A DNA stretch of 64,000 bases from an uncultured Planctomycetales bacterium (GCA_964520655.1 CAZFNI010000006.1:78790-142789), one strand, 5' to 3'; counted from the first letter of the stretch, positions 355 to 53,764 are shown. The notes: generated from the sequence alone by a model not told the origin. Translations and numbers: made by a program.

Positions 355-507
355 TTTTAAGAACACATTGTTGTTGGCAGGTCAGTATCGGTTTTAATGC
401 GGTCATAAAAGAAGGGGGGCGTTATTAAACAAGCATAATTAATCGTTGTTGCGTACGAATTTCTGTATAGAATATTCATTAATTCATTTAACCCATAGGG
501 GATAAAT

Positions 508-34841: not shown

Positions 34842-34879
34842 CTTAATCCATGCTAGATATTAATAAATGGAGAGCACAT

Positions 34880-37556: not shown

Positions 37557-40179
<2,623 letters not shown>

Positions 40180-40196
<17 letters not shown>

Positions 40197-41070
40197 GGAA
40201 TTTATCACATACATCAGTGTTGAGCGCGGACTGGCGAAAAATACGCTGCTGGCATACCGCCGGGACCTGAATAAATATGCCACGGTTCTCCATAAAGCGG
40301 GGGTTGCATTGCCTGAAGGTATTAGGCGGGAGCATATCAGCGGGTACATGTTCGCATTGAAAAAAGAAGGATTAACGACGGCCAGTATTTGTCGGAATCT
40401 GGCGGCGATCAAGATGTTCCATCGTTTTTTGGTTCGGGAGAATTTATCCAAGGAAGACCCGACAACTCTGGTGGAAACACCCCGGCAGTGGAAAAAGGTG
40501 CCGGAGGTGCTGACGCAAAGGGAAGTGGATGCGCTGTTGCTTGTCATTGCCAATGCCCAGGGGCCCCAGGCCAAGCGTGATCTGGCCATTATGGAATTGC
40601 TTTACGCGTCGGGGTTGAGAGTTTCTGAGATCGTGGACCTAAAGATCGGAAGCGTTGAGCCCCAGGTTGGATTTGTCCGGGCGGTCGGCAAAGGCAGTAA
40701 AGAACGCATTATTCCTGTCGGCGCGAAAGCTCTGGAGACTCTGATGGTATATTTACAGAAAGCCCGGCCGAAATTGGTCAAAGGCAAAGAAAGTGATGCC
40801 TTATTCGTCAGCCGATTGGGCAAGAAGTTAAGCCGGGTCAGCGTCTGGAATATGATCAAATCATACGCAAGGCTTTGCGGGATCAAAAAGAACATTAAAC
40901 CCCACACGCTGCGTCATACATTCGCGACGCATCTGCTGGAGCACGGGGCGGATCTGCGCAGCGTCCAGGAAATGCTGGGGCATGCGGATATATCGACGAC
41001 CCAGATCTATACCCATGTGGATAAAGAACGTTTAAAGAGCGTGCATAAGGAATTTCATCCCAGGTCATGA
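40180..41070 (+). CDS. xerD: Tyrosine recombinase XerD/XerC family
   Basis: N-terminal SAM-like domain (FITYISVERGLAKNTLLAYRRDL). Catalytic R..H..R..Y region (HTLRHTFATHLLEHGADLRSVQEMLGHADISTTQIYTH). Confidence 0.85.
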
Positions 41071-41774
41071 AGAACATATTGTCTCATATCGATGATGATT
41101 CTCTCGAGCTGCTGCGCGCCGCAGGGACGATCGCGCAGGAAAAGCGGATGGGGGCGTATTTAGTCGGCGGGCCGGTCAGGGATATTCTGCTTAAAGCTCC
41201 TCTGGTTGATATCGATATCGTTGTGGAAGGTAAAGGCATGGAAGTCGCCCGATCGTTTGCGGTCGCGTTTGGAGGTAAGGTCGTTGTCTATCCGGCGTTT
41301 AAGACAGCCACGGTGACATTGCCCGGCGGACGTCAGGTCGATTTTGCCACGTGCCGCAAAGAGCGCTATGTGCGTCCGGGCGCTTTCCCCAAAGTTGCTC
41401 CGGCAAAGATCGAGGAAGATCTGAAAAGGCGTGACTTTACTGTCAATGCTGTCGCGGTCGCTGTCGATCCGGCACATTGGGGGACCATGATCGATCCTTT
41501 TGGCGGGGTCAAGGACATCGGATCCAAAAAGATCCGCGTGCTGCATGAAAAAAGTTTTATCGATGATCCCACGCGGATGCTGCGAGCAGTTCGTTTTAAA
41601 GAACGTTTTGGTTTTGAGATGGAAAAGAAAACAATGCGGCTGCTTAAAGAAGCGGTTGCCGGCGGTGCGATCAAGACCATCACAGCACAACGTTATAAAA
41701 AAGAGCATGATAAGATCTTAAAAGAACCCAGGTCTTTGGCGATGTTAGCGTGTTTGAGAACCTGGGGCATTTAA
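41067..41774 (+). CDS. CCA-adding-enzyme / poly(A) polymerase family nucleotidyltransferase. Unusually short: head and neck domains only.
   Basis: GGPVRD...DIDIVV catalytic head and RRDFTVNA motif. Only 235 aa, against >=380 aa for typical bacterial CCA enzymes. Stops in all frames follow, before rbfA. Confidence 0.6.
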   Translation: MKNILSHIDDDSLELLRAAGTIAQEKRMGAYLVGGPVRDILLKAPLVDIDIVVEGKGMEVARSFAVAFGGKVVVYPAFKTATVTLPGGRQVDFATCRKERYVRPGAFPKVAPAKIEEDLKRRDFTVNAVAVAVDPAHWGTMIDPFGGVKDIGSKKIRVLHEKSFIDDPTRMLRAVRFKERFGFEMEKKTMRLLKEAVAGGAIKTITAQRYKKEHDKILKEPRSLAMLACLRTWGI

Positions 41775-41791
41775 TCAATAAGGATGGGATT

Positions 41792-42154
41792 ATGTCACGC
41801 ATAGAAAAAGTCAATGAAATGATCAAGCGGGAGATCGGCGAGTTGTTGCTTTTCGGGGAGGTCCGCGACCCCAGGATCAAATTTGTTACCATCCTTAATG
41901 CGGATGTCAGTAAAGACCTTCAGCATGCACGGGTGCGTTTCAGCATATTGTCGGATGACAAGAAAGTGATCGAGGAAACGACAAAGGCGCTTAACCACAT
42001 GAGCGGTTATATCCGCAAGCTCATCGGATCCAAGATCGACCTACGCTATACGCCGCAGATCCAGTTCATTTATGACAAAGGGGTCGCGCATGCGGCCTTG
42101 ATCGACTCAAAGATCGAGGAGATCAAAAAGCTTAAGGAGCAGGAACATGGATGA
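41792..42154 (+). CDS. rbfA: Ribosome-binding factor A
   Basis: SRIEKVNEMIKREIGELL...RDPRI N-terminus typical of RbfA. AGGATGGG RBS. The alternative upstream start at 41750 overlaps the previous gene. Confidence 0.88.
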   Translation: MSRIEKVNEMIKREIGELLLFGEVRDPRIKFVTILNADVSKDLQHARVRFSILSDDKKVIEETTKALNHMSGYIRKLIGSKIDLRYTPQIQFIYDKGVAHAALIDSKIEEIKKLKEQEHG

Positions 42155-43109
42155 GCGTAAAGCGATCCTGGAGGTGATCAAGCGCCATAAGCATTTTTTG
42201 GTGACCACGCATCACAATCCCGACGCGGATGCCGCGGCTTCGGCATTGTGTGTGGCTATGATGCTCAAGGCCATGGGAAAAACCGTGCGGGTGGTCAATG
42301 AGGATGATCTGCCTGGCTGGTTGGAATTCTTGCCCCAGGCTAAATTGTTCAAGAAGGCATCCAAGGTCAAAGCCTTCGATTATGATGCGGCCATCATGCT
42401 CGACTGCGGGGACTTTGAACGCATCGGCGGGGTGAAGAATTTATTGATCGCTGGTAAGCCGATCATCAACATCGATCACCATCAGACCAATACACGGTTT
42501 GGATCTCTCAACTGGGTAGTCCCGAAAGCTTCATCGACGTGTGAAATGCTCTATGATCTTTTAGTGGCCTCTAAGTTAGGGTTTAACAGGCAGCTGGCCA
42601 CACTGCTCTATGCGGGGATCATGACGGATACGGGCTCATTTAAGTATGATAATGTCACTCCCAAGGTCCATGCCATCGTATCTGACCTGATGCGCTTTAA
42701 CATCAATGCCCAGGAGATGCACGAGAAGCTCTATGTGGGGATGCCGGTTGCGGACATGAGATTATTCGCGAAAGTGATCCATGATGCCGAGCTTTTTTGC
42801 CAGAACAAGGTTTTTTGCGTGAGTTTGTCCTTTGCTTCATCGCAAACTTTTTCTAAGTCGTTTGACCTTAAAGAAAAGCTATTCGGGTTCTTAAGATCGG
42901 TCGAAGGGGTCGAGGTGGTGGTGATCTTAACGCAGATCAACGCCCAGGAAGTGCGTATAAATTTCCGCAGTCAGGGGCAGGTCAATGTGGCCAAATTAGC
43001 ACAACGTTTTCATGGCGGAGGTCATCCCAGGGCAGCGGGCGGGAAAATGACCGGGACGCTCGATCACGTGAAAAAACTGGTATTAACCGCGATCAAAAAG
43101 GTCTTATGA
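42147..43109 (+). CDS. nrnA: DHH-family phosphoesterase NrnA (oligoribonuclease / pAp phosphatase)
   Basis: DHH motifs (HHNPDADAAAS, DCGD, IDHH) and a DHHA1 GGGH motif (HGGGHPRAAGG). Confidence 0.82.
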   Translation: MDERKAILEVIKRHKHFLVTTHHNPDADAAASALCVAMMLKAMGKTVRVVNEDDLPGWLEFLPQAKLFKKASKVKAFDYDAAIMLDCGDFERIGGVKNLLIAGKPIINIDHHQTNTRFGSLNWVVPKASSTCEMLYDLLVASKLGFNRQLATLLYAGIMTDTGSFKYDNVTPKVHAIVSDLMRFNINAQEMHEKLYVGMPVADMRLFAKVIHDAELFCQNKVFCVSLSFASSQTFSKSFDLKEKLFGFLRSVEGVEVVVILTQINAQEVRINFRSQGQVNVAKLAQRFHGGGHPRAAGGKMTGTLDHVKKLVLTAIKKVL

Positions 43110-43786
43110 GAACATTAACGGAAAAGCAGGGTGTATTGATCATCAATAAACCAGCGGGCAAAACCTCGCATGATGTGGTGGCCATGGTGCGCCGTATCTT
43201 AGGCCAGCGCCGCGTTGGTCACGCGGGGACACTGGATCCTTTAGCAACGGGTGTGCTGGTCGTTCTGGCGGGAAAGTCGACCAAGATGTTCGATAAATTC
43301 GTGGCCTATGATAAGGGTTACCGTGCGACACTAAAGCTGGGGCTTAAAACAACGTCGGCGGATACGATGGGAGAAACGATCGAACAGAAGTCGTTCGCTC
43401 ATGTGACAAGGATGGATGTGGAAAAAGCTTTTGCTAAATTCACTGGAGAGATCGAGCAATTGCCGCCCATGGTCTCGGCGGTGCGCCATAAAGGCGAACG
43501 GTTATATAAGATCGCCAGGACCGGTCAGCAGGTGGAGCGTACTGTGCGCAATGTGCGCATCGACGAGTTGACCATCTTGCGTTTTGAGCCCCCTGAGGTG
43601 GAATTCTACATGGCTTGTTCGAAAGGTACCTATGTTCGTCAGTTGGCAGACGATGTGGGTGACCTGTTAGGCTGCGGCGCATGCATATGCCAGATCGAGC
43701 GTACCAAGGTTGGTCCATTTGAGATCACCCAGGCGAAGAATATTGAGGATGTCAATGAAAGTCATCTTATTGACTTCAAAGGTTAA
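43106..43786 (+). CDS. truB: tRNA pseudouridine(55) synthase TruB
   Basis: GHAGTLDPLATGVL catalytic Asp motif. Conserved rbfA-(nrnA)-truB-ribF neighbourhood. Confidence 0.9.
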   Translation: MRTLTEKQGVLIINKPAGKTSHDVVAMVRRILGQRRVGHAGTLDPLATGVLVVLAGKSTKMFDKFVAYDKGYRATLKLGLKTTSADTMGETIEQKSFAHVTRMDVEKAFAKFTGEIEQLPPMVSAVRHKGERLYKIARTGQQVERTVRNVRIDELTILRFEPPEVEFYMACSKGTYVRQLADDVGDLLGCGACICQIERTKVGPFEITQAKNIEDVNESHLIDFKG

Positions 43787-44699
43787 ATTAAAGGATACCG
43801 CGGCGGCTATAGGTATTTTTGACGGGGTGCACCGGGGGCATCGTTATTTGCTCGGAAAAATGCTGGCTAAGGCCAGAACCCACCGTTATACGTCCGCGGT
43901 CATCACATTTTTCCCGCACCCTGCCCATGTCCTGCGTCCCGACCTGCAGCTGAAATATTTAACCACTATGGCTCAGCGTATGTGTTTGCTTGAGGAGCTT
44001 GGGGTGGACATTTGTCTGGTTGTTCGTTTTACAAAGACTTTTGCGCATGTGAAACCGGAGTCTTTCATTAAGAATGTCCTGGTCCGTCAGCTGGGCGTCA
44101 AAGAGTTATTTGTCGGCGATGATTTTCGTTTCGGCCGGGAACGCGCCGGTGATGTGGGGTTATTTCGATCGCTGTCTAAAGAATGTGGTTACAGTATGCA
44201 TGGGGTCAAGGCATTAAAAAATGGGGGGAAGCCAGTGAGCAGTACCCGCATTCGGCGGATGGTCGTGCAAGGTGATCTCTTAAGTGCAAAAAAATTATTG
44301 GGCCGGGACTTTAGCTGCGAAGGTAAGGTTGTTAAAGGCGACGGCCGCGGCAAGACCCTTGGTTTTCCGACAGCCAATATTGATTATCAGAACGGGATCA
44401 TGCCTCCCAACGGGGTTTATGCGGTTGTTGTTGCACATAAACGTAAATTCTACAAAGGCGTGGCCAATTTGGGGTTTCGTCCTTCTTTTGAAACAGCATC
44501 TCCAAAACCGCTTTTGGAAGTGCATTGCTTTGACCTGCATCAAGATATCTACGGGGATTTGATCGAAGTTTCTTTTATCAGGAAGATCCGAGACGAGCGC
44601 TCTTTCCCCTCAGTAGAAATGCTCACCCAACAGATCAACAGGGATGCCGTCAAGGCGCGTGGCATTCTACGATCCCATAGGGTATACTTGTCCCGGTAG
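43755..44699 (+). CDS. ribF: Bifunctional riboflavin kinase / FMN adenylyltransferase
   Basis: N-terminal FAD synthetase motifs (GIFDGVHRGH). C-terminal riboflavin kinase (GRGKTLGFPTANI...E). Confidence 0.9.
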   Translation: MKVILLTSKVKLKDTAAAIGIFDGVHRGHRYLLGKMLAKARTHRYTSAVITFFPHPAHVLRPDLQLKYLTTMAQRMCLLEELGVDICLVVRFTKTFAHVKPESFIKNVLVRQLGVKELFVGDDFRFGRERAGDVGLFRSLSKECGYSMHGVKALKNGGKPVSSTRIRRMVVQGDLLSAKKLLGRDFSCEGKVVKGDGRGKTLGFPTANIDYQNGIMPPNGVYAVVVAHKRKFYKGVANLGFRPSFETASPKPLLEVHCFDLHQDIYGDLIEVSFIRKIRDERSFPSVEMLTQQINRDAVKARGILRSHRVYLSR

Positions 44700-44724
44700 T
44701 ATATATACTACCTTTCGGGAAAAT

Positions 44725-47700
44725 ATGATGTTATTGCGGCCCATTATCCATTTTAGCGTTATTCTTTCTTTGCTCGTCACATCCGTGATGCCTTTGTCCA
44801 GGGCATCGGCGGCGCCTTTGTCTGATCTTCCTAAAGCCGGCACAATGGTTGCTTTAAGTCAAGCCTATCAACCTGCGATCATCCGGGGCATCACCGTCCA
44901 TCCAGATGATCCGTTTATCTTCGATTTTATTGTGGATGCCGGGCAGGACAAGCTGCAGGGCGAGGCATTGAATATGGAAGGGGATAAGCTGGTCAAATAT
45001 TTCCTGGCGGCCCTTGCGGTGCCAGAGAAGGAATTGTGGGTCAACTTAAGTCCTTATGAACAAGAACGCGTTATTCCTGAAGGGTTGGGGCAAACCGATA
45101 TGGGACGCGATCTTTTGGCGCAGGATTATATTTTAAAGCAATTGACCGCATCATTGATCTATCCGGAAAAGGAACTGGGCAAGAATTTCTGGGACAAGGT
45201 TTACAGTCAGATGCAAGCTAAATACGGCAAGAGCGTCAATGTTCCGGTAAATACTTTTAATAAAGTCTGGATCATGGCGGATCAGGCTGAGGTGTTTGAG
45301 CGTGCTCAGACGGCCATGGTGACCAAGAGTCACTTGAAGGTCATGCTGGAGGAGGATTATTTAGCGATGAATAGAAATGCGGCGGGTGGCGCTGAAGTTG
45401 GTGCTTTTGCCCGCAGCGACAGGGGGTCAATGGCTTTATTCCCAGCTACCCCACGGGGGGATGGGTGGCGCGAGGACAAAAGCACCAATTCAGCGACAGG
45501 ACCCGCTCTTGCTAGCCAGGTCATAAAGGAAATCATCCTTCCTGAACTCGAACGTGAAGTGAACACGGGAAAGAATTTCGCGCCGCTGCGTCAGATATTT
45601 CATTCCATCATCCTGGCTGGTTGGTACAAGAATAATTTGAAGGAGGCGTTGCTCAATCAGGTCTATTCAGATCAGAACAAAGTGCGCGGTATTGATCTTG
45701 ATGATAAAACAGTCAAACAGCAAATTTATGAACAATATTTGAAGGCGTATAAAAAAGGCGTGTTCAATTTTATCAAGGATGACATGGTCGAGGGACGCAT
45801 GGTTCCCCGGAAATATTTCTCCGGCGGGGTCGATGCCGCGATGGCCCTTCATCCCAAAAGAACAACGGACAGTGCCATGCTCATCACCGGCCTTGCTGGT
45901 GCTTTGCTTCAGGCGATCACGGTTAGATTAAAAAGGAATGATGTGAAGAAAGAGAAAAAGACCGCCCCTAGCGAACAATTCCGAGTGATCATCAGCAAGT
46001 TGATCAACAATATACAGGGTCCGGATAAGTGGGTCATGCGTCCTTTGTATAACCGTTGGGAAGTAGGGGTGACAGTTGAGGGCTGGCCAAGAACCGTTGA
46101 TGGAAAGAGTACGGCCAGTGCCGAGGACTCCAGGATGCTGTTGGATATTTCTCGGGAGTTTCAACAGGTTTTTCCTGATGCTGTATTTGCTGTGGGGGCA
46201 CAGAATTGGAATCTGCGGATCGTTTATATCGTTAAGACAGAGGCAGAAGCTTTTAGGGTGAAAAACATGCTTAACAGTTCTTCAGTCACTTCAGATATGG
46301 TCCAGTTGCTGGAGAGCTATCTGAAAGAAGGAAAAGCGGCTCCTAGGTCTGGCGAGGCCGCAAAGGAACGTAAGTCCGACGCCGCGATGCAAAGCCTCCC
46401 CAAGGAATATGTGCTTAGGGTGAAGCGTTTGGAGAAATATGAAGCACATACGACCTCTCAGGCGATGATTGATCAATTAATGCGGGATAAGGAACGTCTG
46501 GAATCTACAGAGAAATATATGACAGGACAAATGGAAAGAGGATTTGCTTACGATTTTCAAAAGAAGGAAGCCCAAGCCCGTCTAGAGAGGGTGCAGAAGG
46601 ATTTGATCATTATAAAAAAAGCGTTAGAGGTGTGGGAAGAAATACGACTTGCCCAGATCCCTCATTTAAGCCGCAGGGATATAGTGAATGCTTTTGTTAG
46701 GGATTTTGGTTTGGATTATGGCGTTGGAGGAGAAGAGGAGGCTTATGACTATTCGTTAAAAAGGGATGAATCGATCCTGCCTTTTCTAAAGTTCCTAAAG
46801 AGTAAACAAGGTGCGAATATTCCTTTGGTGGTCATCAATCAACCCGACGGCCAAATTGTGGACCCGGGCATTCAAGAAATGATGGGTTTTGGGATCGATG
46901 CGAAAGAAGCATTAAGGATCTTAGCTGTTTATCTTGATCCGCGCGCTGCCTCTGTTGTGGAGGCCGTATTGAACATGACCATTGAATTGTCAGGGGCATT
47001 AAGCGAAAAGGGTATCCATGCTGCGGATGAGATAGCAATTTATATCATCAATCAAATGGGGTTAGACGGCGGAGACGCTATTACAGATAGTGCCATGCTG
47101 GGAGAGCTTATCCGTGATTATTATCCTTTGCCGAGAAGCACACTTCATCCTCTAAAGATGATGGATCAGCTAAAAGCACGATTAAACAGCCGGACAGACC
47201 GCGAGTGGGTCGCGGTTTCTGACAGCGAAGACGTGCTGCGCCGCGTGCGTTGGGACGTGCATTTTTCTTTAGATGGTCAGGATCATACATTGAATGGTTT
47301 TCTGGCAACGCTTGGACTGCCAAGTGAATTCCATCAAAATCTTGAGCGCGACGGAGGTGCGTCGGTGATCATCTATGATGTAAATACACGCGCCTTGACC
47401 GGTCGCGTTCACCGCGCTTTGACCGCGTTGGCCAGGGAATTAAGAGCTGACCAAAAATTCAACCACCGTTATAGCATTAAGTTGACGCCCAATAAGGATC
47501 AACAGTACTTCCCGGGAACGCTGCATACAGCTAGAATCGCTTTTTCCGTCAGGGAGAATGAACCCAGGGCTGAAAAGTATTATGATTCAACGAACTGGAT
47601 GGTGCGGCTGCGGGCATTGTCGACAAATGAATTACAGGGGTTGCTGGCTCAGGAAGAGCGTATTGTTCGAGAAGTCAAGAATGGGGTCAGTGATTCCGCG

Positions 47701-50163
47701 TTGCATCAGGCCGTGGCGATGGCGCAGGAGCGATTGTATTTTTTTAAGGTGTTGGAGAAAGAAATATCGATAAGGGATCGTTTCACAAAAGCTGCTGAGG
47801 CGTATATCAACGGTGCCGATGAGGCCAGAAAGACGGCCTTCCAGGTTTTGGTCAATGAGACGACATATTGGAGTTATGCCCAGATCAAGAAATTAAAAGA
47901 AGCCGCGCAAGATGAGCAGGTCCGTCTTGAATGGGAAAGAGTTCTGGATGCGATCGAGGAGAGATACAACGGCGTAAGAAAACAAGGCCGGTTTGATAAG
48001 AATGAGGTTGGCCAGTTATTAAGCGGGACTGACGCCGCGATGGCTTATGGTTTTCCTAAGCAGATCTATAATTATATGGCGGGATTTGAATCACCTGAAC
48101 GCTTGGCGATCATCGACGGGATCCTCAGAGCCAGCAAGGATGTTCTGGCAGCGATAGGGGCGACGGACAAGGTCAGGTTGGCGCTGGGGTTGTATTATTT
48201 AGGGTATTACGATATTGAAAAATTAACATACCGTTTGAAAGGGATCTTTATTGAAGAATCGAGGACTTATAGCGTAGAAGATGCGAGAGCCCGCCGTTTG
48301 AATGCCGTTGATCAACAGCGGCTGGATGGTCTTCTGGAGGTTGCTTATAATCCTCCATTAAGGCTGGTCAATAACGTCGAACTGGATATTGATGCGGCGG
48401 CGAGAGCTCAAAAGAATATTCTCGTGCTGGATGATGATCCTCAACAGATCTCCCGTTTGGAGGGATATTTTAAAACGATGGGGTATTCTGTCGTAACAGC
48501 GCAGAAACTCGACTGGGCGAAGAAAATATTGGGCTCATCAACTCAACCGATCCATATCATTATCAGCGACATGGAACTGGAGGGGGAGAGGAATAGTCAC
48601 ATACTGCTAAGTCGGGCGCTTGAGGCATCGCATCCTCCGGCGTTCTTTCTAAGGGCGGACAATATTTTAAGCGTGCTCTATGATAACAAGATCTTTAATG
48701 AATTCATCGAAGAATATCCGGGTAGGGATATAAGCGGTATTTTCGATAAAGATGATTTTTCGCTTCAGCGTTTGGGCCGCGCGATAGATCGTGTGTTGTT
48801 TAGTGATGCCGCGATGGCTGGGTCCGCTGAGACGAAGCCCGAAGCGAATGCGGATAGGGCGATGAATGTGATACGCCAGCTTCGAGCATTGGACAGGCTG
48901 GATGCGCCTGGTCTAATGAAAGCGTTGGAAAAATTGATCGGGGCCCTTCGGGACCCTAATGTTTTTCTTGAACAAAGGATCAAGATCATTGACGGCATCC
49001 TCGCCAGGAAGAATATCAGCAAGCCGCCTAAAGCGGTTGAAACCTTAAAAAGCGTGAGACGGTTTCTCATCGATGATGACGTTAAGTTCTTGTTGGATGT
49101 TGGTCCCAGAGAAGAGGTCCTTGCGGTAGAGACAATGTTATTGGCTTTTAAGGATCCGCAGGTCGACGAGGTTGTTGAGGCAATGATGCTGCTGGGTGGT
49201 TTTTCAAAAAGAACGAAACGATACCAAAGGATATATGACATCGCCAGGCAGTTGATCGATCAACCTGTTAGACCAGATGTTCAGACGGGCTTAACAAGGA
49301 CGGAACAGCTGCAGGACATCGATCGGCAGATCACAGTATTGGAAGAAGAACTTCAAGTCATTAGGAATGATATCGCGTCGATGGAAAGTGTTGTTGGCGC
49401 GAGGTTCGAGGGGGAATTATTAAAAGTCGGACTTCGGGATAATGATAAAAGAAGAGGGATCTTAAGCAGGATCAGTGAGGAATTACAGAGTAATCCTCAG
49501 ATCAAAGGGTTAAAACAGTCGCGCGCAGATATTGAGGAACGTTTAGAGAAGCTTCGTTCGCAGCGGTTTTCTTTGGAACAGAAGATGCATGACGGCCAAA
49601 CAGCGCTTGCGGCCCCGGTTGTGACGGCTTTCACAGCGGCAAGCACTGCCCCTGTTGCTGTATCGGAAGACATCCATTTTGATACGATCGTCAAGGCAGC
49701 CAATTTCATTATGGCTGAGCGGCTGCGGCTTCGTTTAAAGATCCCTGAAGTTGCTCGTCGAGTTCGGGTGAGTTCTGAGACGGTCGAGGCATGGGAGCTG
49801 GGTAAAGATCTGTTCATTCAAGGCATCATCCACCCAGCTTTAAGACGCTGGGCGGACCAGTTGCATGTGAGCCATCAAGAAGAGTTGTTTTATGATCTGG
49901 AACAGTTGTTAACCAAGATGCGTCAGGAAGTTGTTCCAGGCGGCGATGTGCAGCAGGGCGGGGACATGGCCATGAAGGGTGGTATTGATCTAGTCCAATC
50001 CAATGATCTTACAGTGACTCGCAAAGAGGGCGCCGGCGTGAAGATGGATATTGATCCCAATGTCATTGAGCAAATTAAACGTGATGGTGTTGATGGACTA
50101 TCACCCCAGATCATCAATGTCCGACCCATTGTCGATATTCTGCGTTTTATTACCCTCCAATAA
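44725..50163 (+). CDS. Giant hypothetical protein (~1812 aa). N-terminal signal peptide or anchor, an internal receiver(REC)-like segment and an HTH-like segment near the C-terminus. No family assignable.
   Basis: Continuous ORF. N-terminal MMLLRPIIHFSVILSLLVTSVMPLSRASAAPL. REC-like NILVLDDDPQQISRLEGYFKTMGYSVVTAQ...IHIIISDMELEG at about nt 48412-48760. HTH-like KIPEVARRVRVSSETVEAWELGK at about nt 49720-49810. Many predicted coiled-coil stretches. Confidence 0.7.
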   Translation: MMLLRPIIHFSVILSLLVTSVMPLSRASAAPLSDLPKAGTMVALSQAYQPAIIRGITVHPDDPFIFDFIVDAGQDKLQGEALNMEGDKLVKYFLAALAVPEKELWVNLSPYEQERVIPEGLGQTDMGRDLLAQDYILKQLTASLIYPEKELGKNFWDKVYSQMQAKYGKSVNVPVNTFNKVWIMADQAEVFERAQTAMVTKSHLKVMLEEDYLAMNRNAAGGAEVGAFARSDRGSMALFPATPRGDGWREDKSTNSATGPALASQVIKEIILPELEREVNTGKNFAPLRQIFHSIILAGWYKNNLKEALLNQVYSDQNKVRGIDLDDKTVKQQIYEQYLKAYKKGVFNFIKDDMVEGRMVPRKYFSGGVDAAMALHPKRTTDSAMLITGLAGALLQAITVRLKRNDVKKEKKTAPSEQFRVIISKLINNIQGPDKWVMRPLYNRWEVGVTVEGWPRTVDGKSTASAEDSRMLLDISREFQQVFPDAVFAVGAQNWNLRIVYIVKTEAEAFRVKNMLNSSSVTSDMVQLLESYLKEGKAAPRSGEAAKERKSDAAMQSLPKEYVLRVKRLEKYEAHTTSQAMIDQLMRDKERLESTEKYMTGQMERGFAYDFQKKEAQARLERVQKDLIIIKKALEVWEEIRLAQIPHLSRRDIVNAFVRDFGLDYGVGGEEEAYDYSLKRDESILPFLKFLKSKQGANIPLVVINQPDGQIVDPGIQEMMGFGIDAKEALRILAVYLDPRAASVVEAVLNMTIELSGALSEKGIHAADEIAIYIINQMGLDGGDAITDSAMLGELIRDYYPLPRSTLHPLKMMDQLKARLNSRTDREWVAVSDSEDVLRRVRWDVHFSLDGQDHTLNGFLATLGLPSEFHQNLERDGGASVIIYDVNTRALTGRVHRALTALARELRADQKFNHRYSIKLTPNKDQQYFPGTLHTARIAFSVRENEPRAEKYYDSTNWMVRLRALSTNELQGLLAQEERIVREVKNGVSDSALHQAVAMAQERLYFFKVLEKEISIRDRFTKAAEAYINGADEARKTAFQVLVNETTYWSYAQIKKLKEAAQDEQVRLEWERVLDAIEERYNGVRKQGRFDKNEVGQLLSGTDAAMAYGFPKQIYNYMAGFESPERLAIIDGILRASKDVLAAIGATDKVRLALGLYYLGYYDIEKLTYRLKGIFIEESRTYSVEDARARRLNAVDQQRLDGLLEVAYNPPLRLVNNVELDIDAAARAQKNILVLDDDPQQISRLEGYFKTMGYSVVTAQKLDWAKKILGSSTQPIHIIISDMELEGERNSHILLSRALEASHPPAFFLRADNILSVLYDNKIFNEFIEEYPGRDISGIFDKDDFSLQRLGRAIDRVLFSDAAMAGSAETKPEANADRAMNVIRQLRALDRLDAPGLMKALEKLIGALRDPNVFLEQRIKIIDGILARKNISKPPKAVETLKSVRRFLIDDDVKFLLDVGPREEVLAVETMLLAFKDPQVDEVVEAMMLLGGFSKRTKRYQRIYDIARQLIDQPVRPDVQTGLTRTEQLQDIDRQITVLEEELQVIRNDIASMESVVGARFEGELLKVGLRDNDKRRGILSRISEELQSNPQIKGLKQSRADIEERLEKLRSQRFSLEQKMHDGQTALAAPVVTAFTAASTAPVAVSEDIHFDTIVKAANFIMAERLRLRLKIPEVARRVRVSSETVEAWELGKDLFIQGIIHPALRRWADQLHVSHQEELFYDLEQLLTKMRQEVVPGGDVQQGGDMAMKGGIDLVQSNDLTVTRKEGAGVKMDIDPNVIEQIKRDGVDGLSPQIINVRPIVDILRFITLQ

Positions 50164-50212
50164 ACCCTGTTTTAAATAATATTATTAATAAATAAAATGA
50201 CGTTTTTTGGTG

Positions 50213-50241
50213 TTGACAACCCACGCGGGTTCTTCTATACT
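50213..50241 (+). promoter_or_regulatory. Near-consensus sigma70 promoter of the mraZ/dcw operon (TTGACA-17-TATACT)
   Basis: TTGACA at 50213-50218, a 17 nt spacer, and TATACT at 50236-50241, 57 nt before the mraZ ATG. Confidence 0.7.
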
Positions 50242-50250
50242 CACATTCAA

Positions 50251-50276
50251 GTGGAGCAAAGTGGTGTGTTGTGGAG
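50251..50276 (+). promoter_or_regulatory. Putative MraZ operator: three direct GTGGNG repeats at 10 bp periodicity
   Basis: GTGGAGcaaaGTGGTGtgttGTGGAG between the -10 element and the mraZ start. MraZ-regulated dcw promoters in other bacteria carry similar 10-bp-spaced direct repeats. Confidence 0.6.
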
Positions 50277-50297
50277 TAAATTGTTAATTGGAGTTCA

Positions 50298-50741
50298 TTG
50301 ATGTTCTACGGCGAATATGCCCATGGGATCGATACCAAAGGCCGTTTGATCTTGCCCGCCCGCATTCGGGATGTGGCCAAAGAGAACGGCATTGAGAAAT
50401 TCTTTGTCACCCGCGGTCTGGACAAATGCATCTTTATGTTTTCCGAAGCGGAATGGCATTTGCAGGAAAACAAATTCAAAGGCCTGTCATTTACCAAGCA
50501 GCAGGCCAGGCATTTTAACCGTTTATTCTTCTCGGGCGCTGTTGAGGTCCTGCCGGACCGTCAGGGTCGTTTTATCATCCCGAGTTATTTAAAAGATTTT
50601 GCCGGCATCAAAAAAGATGCGGTCGTGATCGGTGTATCTAATCGTATCGAGATCTGGGACACCAAGACCTGGCAGGAGTTCTTTAACAAACAAAGTGCGG
50701 ATTTCGAAGCGACGGCTGAAGGGATGCTGGATCTAGCGTGA
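50298..50741 (+). CDS. mraZ: Transcriptional regulator MraZ
   Basis: Two DXXXR MraZ/SpoVT-AbrB-like repeats (IDTKGRLILP and PDRQGRFIIP). First gene of the dcw cluster. Confidence 0.92.
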   Translation: MMFYGEYAHGIDTKGRLILPARIRDVAKENGIEKFFVTRGLDKCIFMFSEAEWHLQENKFKGLSFTKQQARHFNRLFFSGAVEVLPDRQGRFIIPSYLKDFAGIKKDAVVIGVSNRIEIWDTKTWQEFFNKQSADFEATAEGMLDLA

Positions 50742-51628
50742 GCGAAACCCATGTTTCTGTCATGCCCCAGGAAGCTCTGGAATACTTAAATGTTCCCGCT
50801 GGCGGTGTGGTTGTCGATGGGACGCTGGGGCTTGCGGGACATTCCTGCTTGATCGCGCAGAAGCTGGGGCAGAACGGGCATTTGATCGGTATTGACCGGG
50901 ATGTGCTGGCCATCAAACTGGCTCAAGAGAAGCTGGCCGGTCTAACACTCCAAAAAGATCTCTGTCAGGGGGATTTCGCGGACATACAGCAGCATTTATC
51001 GGGTTTAGGAGTCACTGCGGTTGACGGCATTCTGCTGGACCTGGGGATATCCAGTTTTCAGTTGGACAATGCGGCGCGCGGTTTTGCTTTTAGCAGCGAC
51101 GGTCCTTTGGATATGCGCATGGATCCTGCGAACGGTAAGAGCGCGGCGGATCTGGTCAATGCCCTGTCAGAGGGAGAGTTGACAGCCATTATTGAGAAGT
51201 ATGGGGAAGACCGGTTCGCCAAACGCATTGCCAGGGCGATCGTTTACCACCGGGCAGAGAAACGCATCGAACGTACGGAAGAACTGGCCCAGATCGTTTT
51301 GCGGGCGCTGCCCAAAGGGTATACCCGCGGGCGCATTCATCCGGCGACACGGACATTTCAAGCATTACGCATTGAGGTTAACGACGAGCTGGGCAGTTTG
51401 CAGCGCGCTTTATCGGCATGTTTGGAAGTTTTAAAGCCTGGCGGGCGTTTGTGCGTCATCTCTTTTCATTCATTGGAAGACAGGATCGTCAAACAGTCGT
51501 TTAAACGGTTTGCGGAACAAGGGCAGGCGGTCATTTTGACCAAAAGACCCTTGGTGCCGACAGAAATAGAATGTGAAACGAATCCCCGGAGCCGGTCAGC
51601 AAAGCTTCGGGCTATCGAGAAAATATAA
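50738..51628 (+). CDS. rsmH: 16S rRNA (cytosine1402-N4)-methyltransferase RsmH
   Basis: HVSVM...DGTLGLAGHS...DLGISSFQLD motifs. Confidence 0.93.
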   Translation: MSETHVSVMPQEALEYLNVPAGGVVVDGTLGLAGHSCLIAQKLGQNGHLIGIDRDVLAIKLAQEKLAGLTLQKDLCQGDFADIQQHLSGLGVTAVDGILLDLGISSFQLDNAARGFAFSSDGPLDMRMDPANGKSAADLVNALSEGELTAIIEKYGEDRFAKRIARAIVYHRAEKRIERTEELAQIVLRALPKGYTRGRIHPATRTFQALRIEVNDELGSLQRALSACLEVLKPGGRLCVISFHSLEDRIVKQSFKRFAEQGQAVILTKRPLVPTEIECETNPRSRSAKLRAIEKI

Positions 51629-52008
51629 TGAATCTAGTCTCTTCTTTTAAGATCATGGTGTTCGCCACTGTCGTGGCGCTCATTTACACGCATATGCAGA
51701 TGCAGATCGTGGAGTATTCCTACAAGGCCAAGGAAAAACAGCGGCGCATTCATGAACTTCAGGATAATAACGGCATTTTGACACACCAGATTTTGGTGCT
51801 AAAATCAGCGAAGCATTTAGGCGAACAGTTATTAAATAAAGATGACGCGTTGCAGTTCATCGGGCGCGATAGGGTGATGACCATTAATGCCCCGGTGCCG
51901 AAAATACCCGCACGTCCGTCACAGAAACTGAAAGATGCGACCCAGGCCCCTATGTGGAACTGGCTGTCGTTTCTGTCAATACCGGAAGCACGAGCTTTCG
52001 ACCGATAA
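51628..52008 (+). CDS. ftsL: Cell division protein FtsL
   Basis: Small bitopic protein: TM helix plus a coiled coil (QRRIHELQDNNGILTHQILVLKS). Position between rsmH and ftsI. Confidence 0.75.
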   Translation: MNLVSSFKIMVFATVVALIYTHMQMQIVEYSYKAKEKQRRIHELQDNNGILTHQILVLKSAKHLGEQLLNKDDALQFIGRDRVMTINAPVPKIPARPSQKLKDATQAPMWNWLSFLSIPEARAFDR

Positions 52009-53764
52009 GAAAAAGATCGAGGCCCATTTGTACCTGCGCAAATATCCTTTTCGATTTGCATTCGTATTCATATTCATTTTCCTCGGTTTCTGTTACTCGA
52101 TCGTTTTCCTGTTCTCCATCCAGATCTTCCGTTCCTCGCACCTTTCCCGCTTAGCCCAGCGTCAGCATGAGCACTTAAAGTCGATCGATCCTAAACGCGG
52201 GACGATCTATGACCGCAACCTTCATCCGCTGGCGATCAATTTGCCGGTGTATTCTGTTTATGCGAATCCGCGTATGCTGGCTAAACTCCACAACAGCGAT
52301 GAGGTCATTTCCAACCTGGCCGCGACGCTTAGGATGAATGAGGAACAATTAAAGCAAAAAGTCAGCAAGGACAAGTTCTTTGTGTGGGTCGCCCGCATGC
52401 TGCCCCAGGCTACTTATGAAACCCTTAAAGCCAAACATTTCCCCGGGATCGGTTTTGTTAAGGAAAGCAAACGTTTCTATCCCAATAAATATTTGGCGGC
52501 GCATTTAGTCGGGTTTGCCGGTATTGACAATACCGGTCTTGACGGGTTGGAGCGCGATTATGACAAATATCTAAAGGGTAAGACAGGCAGTTCCGTCACC
52601 CTGCGCGACGCGCGCCAGCGTGAATTAGCGGAGAGAGATTATCAACCCCCGGTGGATGGATTTGATCTGGTGTTGACGATCGATGAGACTATCCAGTATT
52701 TAGCGGAACAGGCGCTGGATAAGATGTACCGTAAATATAATGCCAAGGGCGGCAGCATCATTGTCATGGACCCCAAGACCGGCGAGATATTGGCGTTTGC
52801 CAACCGTCCGACCTATGATCTGGAACAGCCCGGAAAGAGTTCAGCGCAGGCCAGGACCAACCGGGCGATCGTATTTACCTATGAACCTGGATCTGTTTTT
52901 AAGATCGTCACGGCCGCGGGCGCTTTGCAGGAGAAGGTGGTCACAGAAAAGGATGTGATCAATTGTGAGCATGGTGCTTATAAAGTGGGTAATCATATTC
53001 TGCATGACCATGAGCCGGCGGGAAATTTAACGTTCAGGGAGGTTATTGAACAGTCCAGCAATATCGGCACGGTCAAGGTGGCTCAGCGTTTGGGGCCGCA
53101 AAGGGTCTATAACTACGCACGTCGTTTCCGTTTTGGGATCAAGACGGGGATCGATCTGCCGGGAGAGGCGCGGGGTAATCTAAAATCTGTGAAGTCCTGG
53201 TCCAAGACATCCATCGGAGCTGTGCCCATCGGGCAGGAGGTCACGGTCACGCCGCTGCAAATGGTCGCCGTCATGTCGGCCATTGCCAATAACGGTGTGT
53301 ATATGCGGCCGTTCGTGGTGAAATATGTGAAAGATGCCCAGGGGCAGATCATCCAGGAGCATAAGCCGCAGATATTAGATAAGATCATGACCGATGATAC
53401 CGCTAAACGTCTTCATGCCATTTTGCAGGGGGTTGTCGATAATGGGACAGCGAAAAAAGCACAGATCGAAGGGGTTCGTGTCGCTGGAAAGACCGGGACA
53501 GCGCAGAAAGTTGTCGGGGGCGCGTATTCCCACTCGAATTTTTATGCGACTTTCGTTGGGTTCGCACCGGTGGATAATCCAAGGCTTGCCTGTGTGGTCG
53601 TTTTCGATGAACCCCATCCGATCTATTACGGGGGGCTTGTGTCCGCACCGGTATTTAAAGAAGTTGTGGAAAATGCCTTGCGTTATTTAAATGCGCAGGA
53701 AACAAAAGAGATCTCGGATATGGACGACAATAGTCCAGAGAATGAACCGCAGTACAAGGATTGA
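51935..53764 (+). CDS. ftsI: Peptidoglycan D,D-transpeptidase FtsI (PBP3-type class B PBP)
   Basis: TM anchor, dimerisation domain and transpeptidase SxxK (TYEPGSVFK), SxN (SSN) and KTG(T) motifs. The ORF-track start at 51935 overlaps ftsL; the true start is more likely TTG 52028 with GAGG upstream. Confidence 0.85.
   Translation: MRPRPLCGTGCRFCQYRKHELSTDKKKIEAHLYLRKYPFRFAFVFIFIFLGFCYSIVFLFSIQIFRSSHLSRLAQRQHEHLKSIDPKRGTIYDRNLHPLAINLPVYSVYANPRMLAKLHNSDEVISNLAATLRMNEEQLKQKVSKDKFFVWVARMLPQATYETLKAKHFPGIGFVKESKRFYPNKYLAAHLVGFAGIDNTGLDGLERDYDKYLKGKTGSSVTLRDARQRELAERDYQPPVDGFDLVLTIDETIQYLAEQALDKMYRKYNAKGGSIIVMDPKTGEILAFANRPTYDLEQPGKSSAQARTNRAIVFTYEPGSVFKIVTAAGALQEKVVTEKDVINCEHGAYKVGNHILHDHEPAGNLTFREVIEQSSNIGTVKVAQRLGPQRVYNYARRFRFGIKTGIDLPGEARGNLKSVKSWSKTSIGAVPIGQEVTVTPLQMVAVMSAIANNGVYMRPFVVKYVKDAQGQIIQEHKPQILDKIMTDDTAKRLHAILQGVVDNGTAKKAQIEGVRVAGKTGTAQKVVGGAYSHSNFYATFVGFAPVDNPRLACVVVFDEPHPIYYGGLVSAPVFKEVVENALRYLNAQETKEISDMDDNSPENEPQYKD

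Follow-up and report, generated by a model that had tools for sequence, protein, structure and literature searches.

Judged from its sequence, the 1,812-residue protein encoded by the gene studied here is a member of a very large and apparently undescribed modular family that was seen only in Omnitrophota. The members of this family follow one plan: a constant head and a constant C-terminal tail enclose a middle of diverse and shuffled cargo, and a short motif specific to the family lies between the cargo domains. Omnitrophota are uncultured, mostly ultra-small bacteria, presumed to be epibionts or predators of other cells, and their strangest genomic feature is the presence of very long proteins that carry a signal peptide and are tiled with cytoplasmic enzymes. 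The features of the gene and its immediate surroundings are collected in Table 1, in the coordinates of the window (the whole 64,000-nucleotide stretch of DNA that was analysed).

Table 1. Coordinates of the gene, the parts of its protein product and the adjoining promoter match, counted from the first nucleotide of the window.
Feature	Position	Strand	Description
CDS, complete	44725..50163	+	1,812 aa plus stop; from the ORF list and translation
Sec-type signal peptide, predicted	44725..44811	+	residues 1-29: MMLLR, hydrophobic core, ASA-A
Head domain, constant	44821..45828	+	residues ~33-368; ends PRKYFSGG; variable insert ~218-262
DxAM motif 1, DAAM	45832..45843	+	residues 370-373
DxAM motif 2, DSAM	45868..45879	+	residues 382-385
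Hydrophobic segment, conserved	45874..45930	+	residues 384-402 (AMLITGLAGALLQAITVRL), then K/R-rich; possible transmembrane helix
Cargo module A, orphan	45880..46377	+	residues 386-551
DxAM motif 3, DAAM	46378..46389	+	residues 552-555
Cargo module B, orphan, helix-rich	46390..47085	+	residues 556-787
DxAM motif 4, DSAM	47086..47097	+	residues 788-791
Cargo module C	47098..48030	+	residues 792-1102; common to other members at different positions
DxAM motif 5, DAAM	48031..48042	+	residues 1103-1106
Cargo module D	48043..48804	+	residues 1107-1360; holds the receiver-like domain; dN/dS 0.13
REC-like segment	48409..48678	+	residues 1229-1318 (ILVLDDD ... IIISDMEL ... FFLRAD)
DxAM motif 6, DAAM	48805..48816	+	residues 1361-1364
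DxAM motif 7, DRAM	48853..48864	+	residues 1377-1380
Cargo module E	48865..49962	+	residues 1381-1746; probable coiled coil and HTH-like stretch; dN/dS 0.16
HTH-like stretch, unproven	49714..49869	+	residues 1664-1715
DxAM motif 8, DMAM	49963..49974	+	residues 1747-1750, directly before the tail
Tail domain, constant	49978..50160	+	residues 1752-1812; GGIDL ... DPxxIExI ... PxIINVxP
Sigma-70-type promoter match, near-consensus	50213..50241	+	upstream of mraZ; TTGACA-17-TATACT, then GTGG repeats

The frame is open without interruption over 44644..50163 (+), with the ATG at 44725 as its sensible start, and a database copy of the protein (P0001), 100% identical, begins one codon later, at 44728. 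A syntenic orthologue of 1,811 residues (P0002), found at the same locus in a second assembly, aligns without gaps at 89% identity. Between the two proteins dN/dS is 0.18 overall and 0.06-0.21 in every segment; the ORF is real and is kept under purifying selection along its full length. An earlier note, made from the sequence of the window, had described one continuous 5.4 kb frame with host-like codon usage and no recognisable enzyme motifs, and all three points stand: codon usage (RSCU r = 0.72) equals the mean of the neighbouring genes, though GC3 is about 2 SD below it (0.514 versus 0.592 +/- 0.034), and no enzymatic domain was found in the whole protein with Pfam, NCBIfam, PADLOC or PHROGs. 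That the frame is non-functional, as a fused, chimeric or decaying product of assembly or pseudogenisation, might be suspected from its source in a metagenome-assembled genome, from a middle without homologues and from the mosaic structure of two related MAGs around the locus, but this reading is effectively refuted by the gapless orthologue, by constraint in every segment, by codon usage shared with the neighbours and by a head, a tail and eight motifs that are all intact. The eight DxAM motifs, the constant tail and the hydrophobic segment at residues 384-402 are all absent from the earlier note.

The secretion-type N-terminus that had been proposed agrees with its makeup, a basic MMLLR start, a core with a 19-residue Kyte-Doolittle mean of 1.96 and an ASA-A site, which together suggest a putative Sec signal peptide; crude sequence rules recover the same order of features, from basic start through hydrophobic run to AxA-like site, in 139 of 165 family members. 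The head that follows is about 335 residues long (WVNLSPYE ... GRDLLAQDY.LKQ ... FNKVWI ... KKGVFNYIKE ... PRKYFSGG). It is matched by at least 3,910 proteins at E <= 1e-3, with 50-67% identity, and every source name given for them is Omnitrophota or Omnitrophica. All the residues that are invariant in two alignments of heads (A1, 42 sequences; A2, 39 sequences) are present in the query. The head matched nothing in Pfam or NCBIfam. Searches of the PDB with one head sequence and with a profile built from 39 gave no sequence match, and no fold match was found there either.

At the opposite end, the tail measures about 60-70 residues across the family (consensus GGIDL ... DPxxIE ... PVIxxIxP); in 167 of the 189 members sampled it is found in the final 140 residues, always as the terminal domain. 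The query tail shares 28-46% identity with the tails of alignment A4, in which GGID is invariant, and has no match in Pfam or NCBIfam. An AF2 model, of low confidence (pLDDT 63.7), suggests a beta-hairpin plus helix, with two short strands and one helix. Neither domain is assigned a function, as the fold of the head could not be recognised and the tail was modelled at low confidence; no description of the head, the tail or the DxAM motif was found in the literature searched. A homologue search with the tail profile returned mostly fragments of 50-130 residues from contig ends. No second family copy was found within the 64-kb window: a weak tail-like match at 35021-35086, inside an ordinary ORF read by eye as riboflavin synthase, was set aside as chance.

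Among GTDB species genomes there are at least 576 family loci, of which 80 were kept. All 80 come from MAGs. Almost all of these bear the title Omnitrophota, and the others are TPA bins labelled 'uncultured Planctomycetales' and a single 'bacterium'. Several family copies occur per MAG, tandem arrays are found at 15 of the 80 loci, and the sampled members range from 0.4 to 3.7 kaa in length, with a median of 1.3 kaa. The earlier description of the protein as an ORFan giant that fits no described family therefore needs to be divided: no curated family matches it and its middle is an orphan, but residues ~33-368 and ~1752-1812 have thousands of homologues, and by head and tail it belongs to a multi-copy Omnitrophota family rather than being a unique orphan.

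What varies among the members is the cargo. Paralogues carry malate synthase with isocitrate lyase, PEPCK with PFK, PGK, hexokinase, adenylate kinase, GDH, ACP, REC and HTH domains, and REC and HTH reach full significance as cargo in P0015, P0028, P0092, P0095 and P0012. For the median member, only 9% of the cargo has a relative elsewhere in the sample, and of the segments that are shared, over half are shifted in position. The middle of the query is just as individual. For residues 383-1746, a word-indexed search recovered P0001 and P0002 only, and for residues 552-1746 a full HMMER scan of 1.84 billion proteins added only two fragments from the same family. These are P0121 and P0122, which share module C at 49-51% identity and carry it just before the tail and just after the head, respectively. 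Module A has no homologues beyond P0001 and P0002 in the word-indexed search, and modules B and E have none in either the word-indexed search or the full HMMER scan; within the 189-sequence sample, module B weakly matches the cargo of paralogue P0003 (E = 4e-4). Across the whole protein, the libraries (Pfam, NCBIfam, PADLOC, PHROGs) returned no more than REC and HTH matches below threshold and, at residues 1513-1623, a weak SbcC-like coil, the sole hint of the coiled coils that the earlier note placed throughout the chain. PDB sequence searches with the head, modules A-C, the part from module D to the tail, and the HTH stretch returned receiver domains only, in module D.

A diverse, mosaic middle behind a putative signal peptide might also suggest that the protein coats the surface of an epibiotic or predatory Omnitrophota cell or serves it as an adhesin, with an envelope-anchoring head and an exposed, fast-evolving middle. 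An adhesin role has been proposed for large ORFs of Omnitrophota (PMC10066038), and against P0002 dS is close to 1 in modules A and B (1.05 and 1.0) and about 0.2 elsewhere. Nevertheless, this reading is very improbable: the middle is under purifying rather than diversifying selection (dN/dS 0.13-0.21, with 0.21 in module A and 0.15 in module B), no adhesin, SLH, Ig-like, dockerin or repeat domains were found in the query with Pfam, NCBIfam or PDB sequence searches, and the cargo of the paralogues consists of intact central-metabolism enzymes, REC, HTH and ACP, with no binding repeats. The earlier note had named membership of a known adhesin or surface-layer family, with spurious REC and HTH resemblances, as the outcome that would overturn its view. 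This outcome was not seen: no curated family matched, the REC resemblance is consistent, and REC and HTH return as significant cargo in paralogues.

The cargo modules are separated by a six-residue junction motif, [S/A]-D-x-A-M-[T/A/S]. The eight DxAM copies of the query (P = 2.4e-9) avoid both its REC-like and its HTH-like segment, and all eight are kept in P0002 despite changed flanks, two of them with synonymous changes. Across 12 paralogues, none of 61 cargo motifs falls inside a Pfam domain (P = 1.5e-7), and DxAM is the top enriched X.XX pattern of family cargo, at 18.5 times expectation. It was not found in 15,227 residues of the other proteins of the window, and in 223,000 residues of ORFs from outside the family its frequency is that of the background; on these grounds a general proteome or export motif was ruled out. 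The motif stands no more than 30 residues before GGIDL in 77 of 167 members; at the head-cargo and cargo-tail boundaries it is present in no more than roughly half of the family, and its count correlates weakly with protein length (r = 0.23), some long members having only two copies.

We give an even chance to the explanation that the protein is a Sec-exported carrier, in which the head and tail serve trafficking or anchoring, the DxAM motifs are recognition sites at the junctions and the middle is payload. The signal peptide would direct export by Sec; head and tail would form a constant apparatus for trafficking, anchoring or hand-over; the motifs would be recognised at module junctions, for proteolytic release or docking; and the payload of the query would comprise five lineage-specific modules. 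A related but decidedly unlikely possibility is a self-processing polyprotein, whose head would be a new type of peptidase that cuts at DxAM and frees the cargo modules. The family-specific, strictly inter-domain motif fits such a role, as does the lack of a conserved partner gene, which favours a self-contained system, and for the Omnitrophota giants proteolytic cleavage has been proposed by West-Roberts et al. (bioRxiv 10.1101/2023.11.21.568195). In the AF2 model of the head, moreover, two motif-bearing stretches after it have pLDDT 66-75, against 31-38 in the preceding 30 residues, a hint that they may pack against the head. Yet the head has no invariant His or Cys, no known peptidase signature and no resemblance to any peptidase by sequence or fold, and the reading sits poorly with the half of the members that have no boundary motif and with the long members that have two.

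Cargo module D contains a receiver-like segment. PF00072 scores 19.6 bits against a cut-off of 30.2 and covers profile positions 1-54 of 111, the NCBIfam TorR model reaches E = 1.2e-5, and all seven PDB matches with E < 1 are receiver domains aligned to residues 1229-1318 (ARR1, AdeR, TorR and a response regulator). LVLDDD, corresponding to the acidic pocket (DD after beta1), and IIISDMEL, corresponding to the phospho-acceptor Asp at the end of beta3, align with ARR1, AdeR and TorR. Receivers also have a conserved Thr or Ser at the end of beta4 and a Lys after beta5; in the ARR1 alignment an Arg (FFLRAD) stands opposite Ser, and the Lys of GIFDK lies outside all alignments. By these alignments, the segment is a divergent receiver-like domain, real but sub-threshold, so that the receiver resemblance reported earlier holds in its consistency and falls short at the Pfam cut-off. 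The XRE-type helix-turn-helix (PF01381, PF13413) reported with it was not confirmed: Pfam HTH_25 gives E = 0.045 (14 bits versus a cut-off of 24.6) and NCBIfam VC1465 E = 0.061, no HTH appears among the PDB hits of residues 1664-1715, and BLASTP against paralogue P0012 did not align this stretch to the HTH of P0012. The likeness to response regulators thus extends over beta1-beta4, the DDD cluster and the phospho-acceptor Asp, with an XRE-like pattern at 1664-1715; unlike in two-component regulators, the two parts make up about 8% of a 1,812-residue protein with a putative signal peptide, both are below curated thresholds, and they lie about 350 residues and two DxAM junctions apart. No cognate kinase was identified near the gene. 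With a divergent receiver fold and a possible HTH, the payload of the query is therefore most likely signalling or scaffold cargo rather than enzymes.

The earlier note rightly saw that a signal for export sits uneasily with modules of cytoplasmic type. On another reading, the protein would be a bitopic transmembrane signalling protein, with a periplasmic sensor head, a membrane span at residues 384-402 and cytoplasmic REC-like and HTH-like modules regulating transcription, possibly of mraZ and the dcw genes. The segment has a Kyte-Doolittle mean of 1.64, with six K/R after it and two before it, and its core at 385-400 (MLITGLAGALLQAITV) shows 100% conservation in P0002, whereas the module around it is only 70% identical; REC and HTH are, moreover, cytoplasmic types of module. 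Genomic position offers further arguments. The gene does lie between ribF and the dcw genes, as first noted, with truB and ribF upstream and mraZ, rsmH and ftsI downstream; the order ribF-gene-mraZ is kept in the genome of P0002, truB-ribF-family gene is kept at locus L025, and a strong promoter match for mraZ follows closely, the -35 box of the best match beginning 50 nt past the stop codon. The interval of 135 nt once given as the distance to this promoter is that from the stop to the mraZ start codon.

Even so, the bitopic reading is unlikely. The segment is short and borderline, and a clear hydrophobic segment after the head occurs in only about 12 of 184 members, none of them enzyme-bearing; the HTH has no support beyond E = 0.045, the receiver-like domain has Arg at the conserved Thr/Ser position, and the tail and the eight DxAM motifs are left without a role. 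The synteny found in the genome of P0002 does not extend to the family: only 2 of the 80 loci adjoin dcw or ribF genes, and a third has just a distant rsmH homologue, which rules against a functional tie to dcw. Family genes are dispersed among housekeeping genes with no conserved neighbour across the 80 loci; no recurrent partner such as a protease or transporter was found beside them, the best neighbour cluster being present at 8 of the 80. The adjacency of the query gene to dcw looks incidental, positional rather than functional, and the earlier proposal that it encodes a scaffold-like regulator linked to the cell-division operon finds no support, given that the cargo of the paralogues differs and the loci are scattered.

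For the carrier explanation, the absence of a conserved neighbour favours a self-contained system. A difficulty lies with the paralogue enzymes that depend on ATP, GTP or NAD(P)H (PFK, PEPCK, PGK, hexokinase, ADK, GDH) and lack a transmembrane segment after the head, whose presence in the periplasm or outside the cell would be difficult to explain. In the query itself, segment 384-402, if it spans the membrane, could return the chain to the cytoplasm and place the tail on the opposite side from that of most members. A bolder extension, which we hold tentatively and consider doubtful, is that the family forms a self-contained Omnitrophota cargo platform whose constant head and tail export almost any cytoplasmic-type protein, from enzymes of glycolysis, gluconeogenesis and the glyoxylate shunt to ACP, receivers and HTH regulators, possibly onto or into host or prey cells, with DxAM serving release or docking. 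Such a platform would be an analogue in function of MARTX toxins or of T9SS cargo, while being evolutionarily unrelated to either.

MARTX toxins of Vibrio have conserved N- and C-terminal regions around a shuffled array of effectors, with short processing sites between them. The likeness, by analogy, is that constant ends frame interchangeable cargo separated by short sites; unlike MARTX, the query has no RTX repeats or cysteine protease domain (Pfam and NCBIfam, E <= 1) and no sequence similarity, it carries a predicted N-terminal Sec signal instead of using type I secretion, and the cargo of the family is metabolic and regulatory, not toxic. T9SS cargo resembles the family in that proteins with little else in common end in a small constant domain and begin with a signal peptide, which is putative in the family. 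However, the T9SS CTD of Bacteroidota is described as an Ig-like 3+4 beta-sandwich (PMC11285876), whereas the query tail is modelled, at low confidence, as a hairpin and helix and matches no CTD model in Pfam or NCBIfam; the family tail also always accompanies a constant 335-residue head, which T9SS cargo lacks. Polyvalent proteins of phages and conjugative elements, as outlined by Iyer et al. (2017, PMC5512222), likewise string unrelated domains in one chain with variable architectures. In contrast to these components of mobile elements and genome conflicts, the family is chromosomal, sits among housekeeping genes and has a constant head and tail, and neither PHROG nor PADLOC supported a mobile-element or phage link for the query.

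A further comparison, by description, is with the giant proteins of the same phylum. Two studies, both on proteins of at least 10,000 residues, distinguish 'Archaeovorins', 'Dockerin-type' and 'multi-enzyme metabolic cluster' giants, and processing by proteases has been proposed (West-Roberts et al. 2023, bioRxiv 10.1101/2023.11.21.568195; Nielsen & Lui 2026, bioRxiv 10.64898/2026.06.07.730766). As far as these descriptions go, the giants and the present family are alike in being mosaic, mostly sequence-unique Omnitrophota proteins with an N-terminal signal peptide or membrane segment (predicted in the family) and with tiled cytoplasmic-type enzymes, kinases (hexokinase) and receivers. The passages on N- and C-termini in the two papers describe no shared head or tail, and a term search of the 2026 preprint (bioRxiv 10.64898/2026.06.07.730766) gave no mention of motif, linker, cleavage or polyprotein. 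The family is defined by head, tail and motif at 0.4-3.7 kaa, and the query, at 1,812 aa, has neither dockerin nor peptidase domains (C39 and S8 are among the features of giants), while its paralogues do have tiled enzyme domains. The head-tail family may be a small-format relative of the 10-150 kaa giants.

The head-tail family presents the giant-protein puzzle in a compact and abundant form that is amenable to experiment. Thousands of relatives, several copies per genome, two constant domains and one six-residue motif provide handles for mutation, reporters and proteomes. If the family proves to be an export, delivery or processing system, it would reveal a new way for bacteria to take entire metabolic enzymes, and regulators too, out of the cytoplasm, and would offer a handle on the workings of the giant proteins; if its members are cytoplasmic instead, they would represent a new way to tether central metabolism to a membrane. 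Either way, the head and tail deserve family definitions, by which thousands of proteins could be annotated, those with a source name being labelled 'hypothetical'.

A minor observation concerns the nucleotide sequence of the motif. The Met of DxAM as an internal translation start with an embedded Shine-Dalgarno sequence was ruled out because the upstream purine-rich signal is absent and only normal codon periodicity is seen. The Ala codon that precedes this ATG has G or C at the wobble position in 87% of cases, against a background of 58%, a bias that hints at a nucleotide-level component.

The 1,812-aa protein encoded at window 44725-50163 (+), referred to here as the query, belongs to a huge, multi-copy protein family observed only in Omnitrophota, and its gene is under selection. 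This family combines a constant N-terminal domain (head), a constant C-terminal domain (tail), variable and shuffled cargo modules between them, and a family-specific inter-module motif, D-x-A-M (DxAM). Searched against 5.8 billion proteins, the query has at least 3,910 matches. Among the matches listed, all except a database copy of the query (P0001) and its syntenic orthologue (P0002) cover only the first ~21% of the query, with 50-67% identity; the head-matching proteins are 1,000-2,700 aa long, and all source names given are Omnitrophota or Omnitrophica. The head is sharply bounded in the alignment, and that of the query is ~80% identical to the family consensus, with a single variable insert at residues 218-262. 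The tail, with consensus GGIDLN..(V.KDG.GV.M)..DPAMIERI..G...L.PVI..ITP at the extreme C-terminus, is 55-75 residues long, counted from GGIDL up to the stop, and was found in 167 of 189 sampled members. The description of the query as an ORFan in the earlier note therefore fails at both ends, which are common to the family, but holds for ~75% of the protein, since residues 383-1746 are almost without relatives.

Scanning one genome per GTDB species yielded at least 576 loci, of which 80 were kept. All 80 come from MAGs, nearly all titled Omnitrophota, the others being "uncultured Planctomycetales" TPA bins and one entry titled "bacterium". In the "uncultured Planctomycetales" MAGs (loci L005, L007, L008, L010 and others), the family genes and their neighbours resemble those of Omnitrophota MAGs, and the title is probably placeholder taxonomy. 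Several of the kept loci share a MAG, and 15 of the 80 (including L054, L056, L065 and L080) carry tandem arrays of two to three copies, in which every copy has a head of its own and the cargo differs. Another family member, P0114, is encoded on the query's contig, and P0004 occurs in the sister genome.

Features of the query gene, its product and the gap upstream of mraZ (nucleotide positions in the window; residues of the query)
Feature	Position	Strand	Remarks
Long open frame	44644..50163	+	From the ORF list
Near-consensus promoter match	50213-50241		TTGACA-17-TATACT (11/12), between query stop and mraZ
Head	residues ~33-368		Terminates in PRKYFSGG
Borderline hydrophobic segment	residues 384-402		Kyte-Doolittle mean 1.64; followed by RLKRNDVKKEKK
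Module A	residues 386-551		Bounded by DxAM
Module B	residues 556-787		Bounded by DxAM
Module C	residues 792-1102		Bounded by DxAM
Module D	residues 1107-1360		Bounded by DxAM
Module E	residues 1381-1746		Bounded by DxAM
Tail	residues 1752-1812		C-terminal

The 5' part of the open frame overlaps the end of ribF, and translation most sensibly begins at the ATG pair 44725/44728, which lies 26 nt past the ribF stop; P0001 (1,811 aa) is identical to the query from the second ATG. A DHH-family gene, truB and ribF lie upstream, while mraZ, rsmH and ftsI follow downstream, with the remaining dcw cluster assigned by context, in agreement with the location first proposed. The 135 nt said to separate the gene from the mraZ promoter is the correct length, but it is the distance from the query stop to the mraZ start codon, and the promoter match falls inside this gap. 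Three closely spaced GTGG repeats come after that match, both lying within window 50213-50290, and resemble MraZ operator boxes. The secretion-type N-terminus was also borne out, as MMLLR, a hydrophobic core and ASA|A have the makeup of a Sec signal peptide when read from the sequence. Codon usage is host-like, as had been claimed (RSCU r = 0.72, equal to the mean for the other 39 ORFs), and GC3 is somewhat below that of the neighbours. Further upstream, window 33630-34691 and 34850-35461 hold ordinary genes that look riboflavin-biosynthesis-like by eye, and the ORF at 35544-37274, also ordinary, corresponds to a gene with PEP-utilising-enzyme Pfam domains at the orthologous locus L081. A weak tail-like tblastn match at 35021-35086, within ordinary genes, was dismissed as chance.

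Synteny with a related genome, a check proposed in the earlier note, was found in GCA_041910255.1, where P0002 (1,811 aa, 89% identical) occupies the equivalent place in the order truB-ribF-gene-mraZ-rsmH and aligns with the query with zero gaps. Nei-Gojobori dN/dS between the two is 0.06 for the N-terminal domain, 0.13-0.21 for the five middle segments and 0.17 for the C-terminal end; therefore, the whole frame is under purifying selection, including the part that has no homologues. The gapless orthologue and the low dN/dS throughout exclude an artefact or pseudogene, and we assign practically no probability to an artefact as the explanation of the query. Divergence from L081 across window 37658-53764 is uneven: nucleotide identity is 100% for ligA, xerC, truB and the DHH gene, dS is 0.05 for ribF and 0.26-0.30 for mraZ and ftsI, and within the query gene it reaches ~1.0 in modules A and B compared with ~0.2 in the rest. 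The two related MAGs are mosaic around this locus, which suggests that a recombination boundary lies at or near the query gene and that modules A and B were swapped in from a more distant lineage or reflect a population-level assembly chimera.

Between head and tail, the cargo of paralogues is unrelated and often consists of complete cytoplasmic enzymes. P0033 carries malate synthase and isocitrate lyase in a single chain, and P0022 carries PEPCK and phosphofructokinase (PFK); phosphoglycerate kinase (PGK), hexokinase, transaldolase, adenylate kinase (ADK), glutamate dehydrogenase (GDH), an acyl-carrier module, receiver domains and XRE-type HTH domains occur in others. Some paralogues join functionally linked enzymes, as in the glyoxylate-shunt pair (P0033, P0024 and P0041) and in PEPCK plus PFK (P0022). 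Among 183 sampled proteins, the median share of cargo residues with a relative in any other member is only 9%, and more than half of the matches between shared segments are offset by over 200 residues. An indexed search with query residues 383-1746 found no relatives beyond P0001 and P0002, and a full HMMER scan of 1.84 billion representatives with residues 552-1746 recovered only P0002 and two fragments. Both fragments are family members with a homologue of module C, placed directly past the head in one and directly ahead of the tail in the other; this module, the only recurring one in the query, is thus behaving as shuffled cargo.

The receiver (REC)-like and HTH-like segments reported in the earlier note fared differently. 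Residues 1229-1318 score 19.6 bits against PF00072, under the 30.2 cut-off, but match NCBIfam TorR (E = 1.2e-5) and several more response-regulator models, and all seven PDB matches with E < 1 are receivers (ARR1, AdeR, TorR and one further response regulator). The alignment runs from beta1 to beta4, covering the DDD cluster as well as the acceptor position, which holds an Asp, and Arg replaces the conserved Thr/Ser; the segment is accepted as a divergent, possibly non-canonical, receiver-like fold predicted from sequence. The XRE-type HTH is unproven: the pattern at residues 1664-1715 gives matches of E = 0.045 and E = 0.061 and finds no support in PDB sequences or in the HTH-bearing paralogue P0012. 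Both REC and HTH are plausible cargo types, because each is fully significant as cargo in paralogues.

DxAM occurs eight times in the query (residues 370, 382, 552, 788, 1103, 1361, 1377 and 1747), against a Poisson expectation of 0.33 (P = 2.4e-9). Across family cargo, D.AM is the most enriched X.XX pattern, at 18.5 times expectation, followed by N.AM at 6.6 times; the consensus is limited to [S/A]-D-[A]-A-M-[T/A/S]-[A/S/V/T/G], with flanks not conserved. The other window proteins, 15,227 residues in all, lack the motif, and non-family ORFs adjoining family genes show it at the background rate (20 observed vs 24.7 expected over 223,000 residues). Of 61 cargo motifs in 12 paralogues that have Pfam domains, none falls inside a domain envelope (P = 1.5e-7), and some modules are tightly bracketed (transaldolase by 26 and 9 residues, ACP by 11 and 7, PFK by 15). 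A DxAM lies within 45 residues past the head in about half of the members, and within 30 residues ahead of the tail in about half. In P0019, the motif recurs every 81-99 residues around an ACP-like module, which suggests small carrier modules arranged as a string. P0002 keeps all eight query motifs despite changed flanks and, at two motifs, synonymous changes, so selection is acting at the peptide level. An additional bias exists at the nucleotide level, as the Ala codon before the DxAM ATG has a G/C wobble base in 87% of cases vs 58% of Ala codons overall (family genes, L001-L080), and the window gene uses GAY-GCC-GCG-ATG at four of its eight sites. No Shine-Dalgarno-like signal was detected upstream of the Met codon. 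A self-processing polyprotein, with the head as a new peptidase cutting at the junctions, is an improbable account of the query. A zincin-like Peptidase_MA_2 gene (PF13485, E = 1e-12) separates murG from murC in the dcw cluster, at window 61138-61920, with a 66% identical homologue at the equivalent position in another Omnitrophota genome (L082/L007); that it might take part in DxAM processing is pure speculation.

A signal-peptide-like start was recognized by crude rules in 139 of 165 members. On a naive reading, export would apply to PFK, PEPCK, PGK, hexokinase, ADK and GDH. According to Nielsen & Lui (2026), 94% of the Omnitrophota proteins that reach 10 kaa or more carry a signal peptide or transmembrane helices, and many of them are "multi-enzyme metabolic clusters"; the paradox of a signal peptide with cytoplasmic enzymes is common to the family and to these proteins. 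A surface coat or adhesin is considered very improbable. A clear hydrophobic segment past the head is present in only ~12 of 184 members and in none of the enzyme-bearing ones. The query belongs to the minority with a hydrophobic segment, in its case borderline, directly past the head, and its hydrophobic core (385-400) is 100% kept in P0002 within a module that is 70% identical. If the segment spans the membrane, the query's cargo and tail would be cytoplasmic, the tail on the opposite side from that of most relatives, and the contradiction between export signal and cytoplasmic modules would thus be gone for the query. The contradiction raised originally is real insofar as an export-type start does sit beside cytoplasmic-type modules. 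A bitopic sensor-regulator, in which the segment would span the membrane, is considered unlikely.

The neighbours of family genes are ordinary housekeeping genes. When all ORFs flanking the 80 loci were clustered, no recurrent partner gene emerged; the best cluster, at 8 of 80 loci (including L001:17862) and the sole neighbour family to occur more than six times, is a ~430-aa ORF whose N-terminus resembles a membrane permease by eye. The post-ribF position is kept in the genome of P0002 and in a more distant MAG (L025, ribF 56% identical), and one other member is found where a dcw cluster ends, several genes downstream of ftsA. Adjacency to dcw or ribF genes was seen at only 2 of the 80 family loci, with just a distant rsmH homologue at a third, which argues against a regulator tied to the cell-division operon; the adjacency of the query to ribF and mraZ is read as positional.

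The favored interpretation, given about an even chance, is a carrier exported through its Sec signal, in which head and tail would be constant trafficking or anchoring parts, DxAM would mark junction recognition sites for release or docking, and the query's payload would be of signalling or scaffold type. Closest among known systems are the giant Omnitrophota mosaics, MARTX toxins and T9SS cargo. The mosaics, compared by description, represent the same phenomenon; head, tail and motif do not figure in those descriptions. MARTX toxins are alike in logic but unrelated in parts, and T9SS cargo pairs a signal peptide with a terminal domain, but the fold of that domain was not recovered in the query tail. 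A full-text literature search of incomplete coverage found no description of head, tail or DxAM, and a prior one is possible. The family is rated as belonging with the Omnitrophota signal-peptide mosaic proteins, and a genuinely new cargo-delivery or processing system is doubtful.

Members at the extremes of size were also observed. A 3,691-aa ORF in L079 (9961 onward) opens with the signal peptide and head of the family, and in L073 a 3,226-aa member has just two DxAM, one past the head and one ahead of the tail; these large members may bridge towards the giant proteins of the phylum. At the other end, P0136 is an 80-aa ORF with little beyond the tail domain, found on 13 contigs (L085:669-911, L086:640-882). 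At the three sites inspected, ~640-670 nt separate it from a contig end and no upstream gene is called; the ORF represents either a tail mini-protein that stands alone or what is left of a family gene at assembly breaks.
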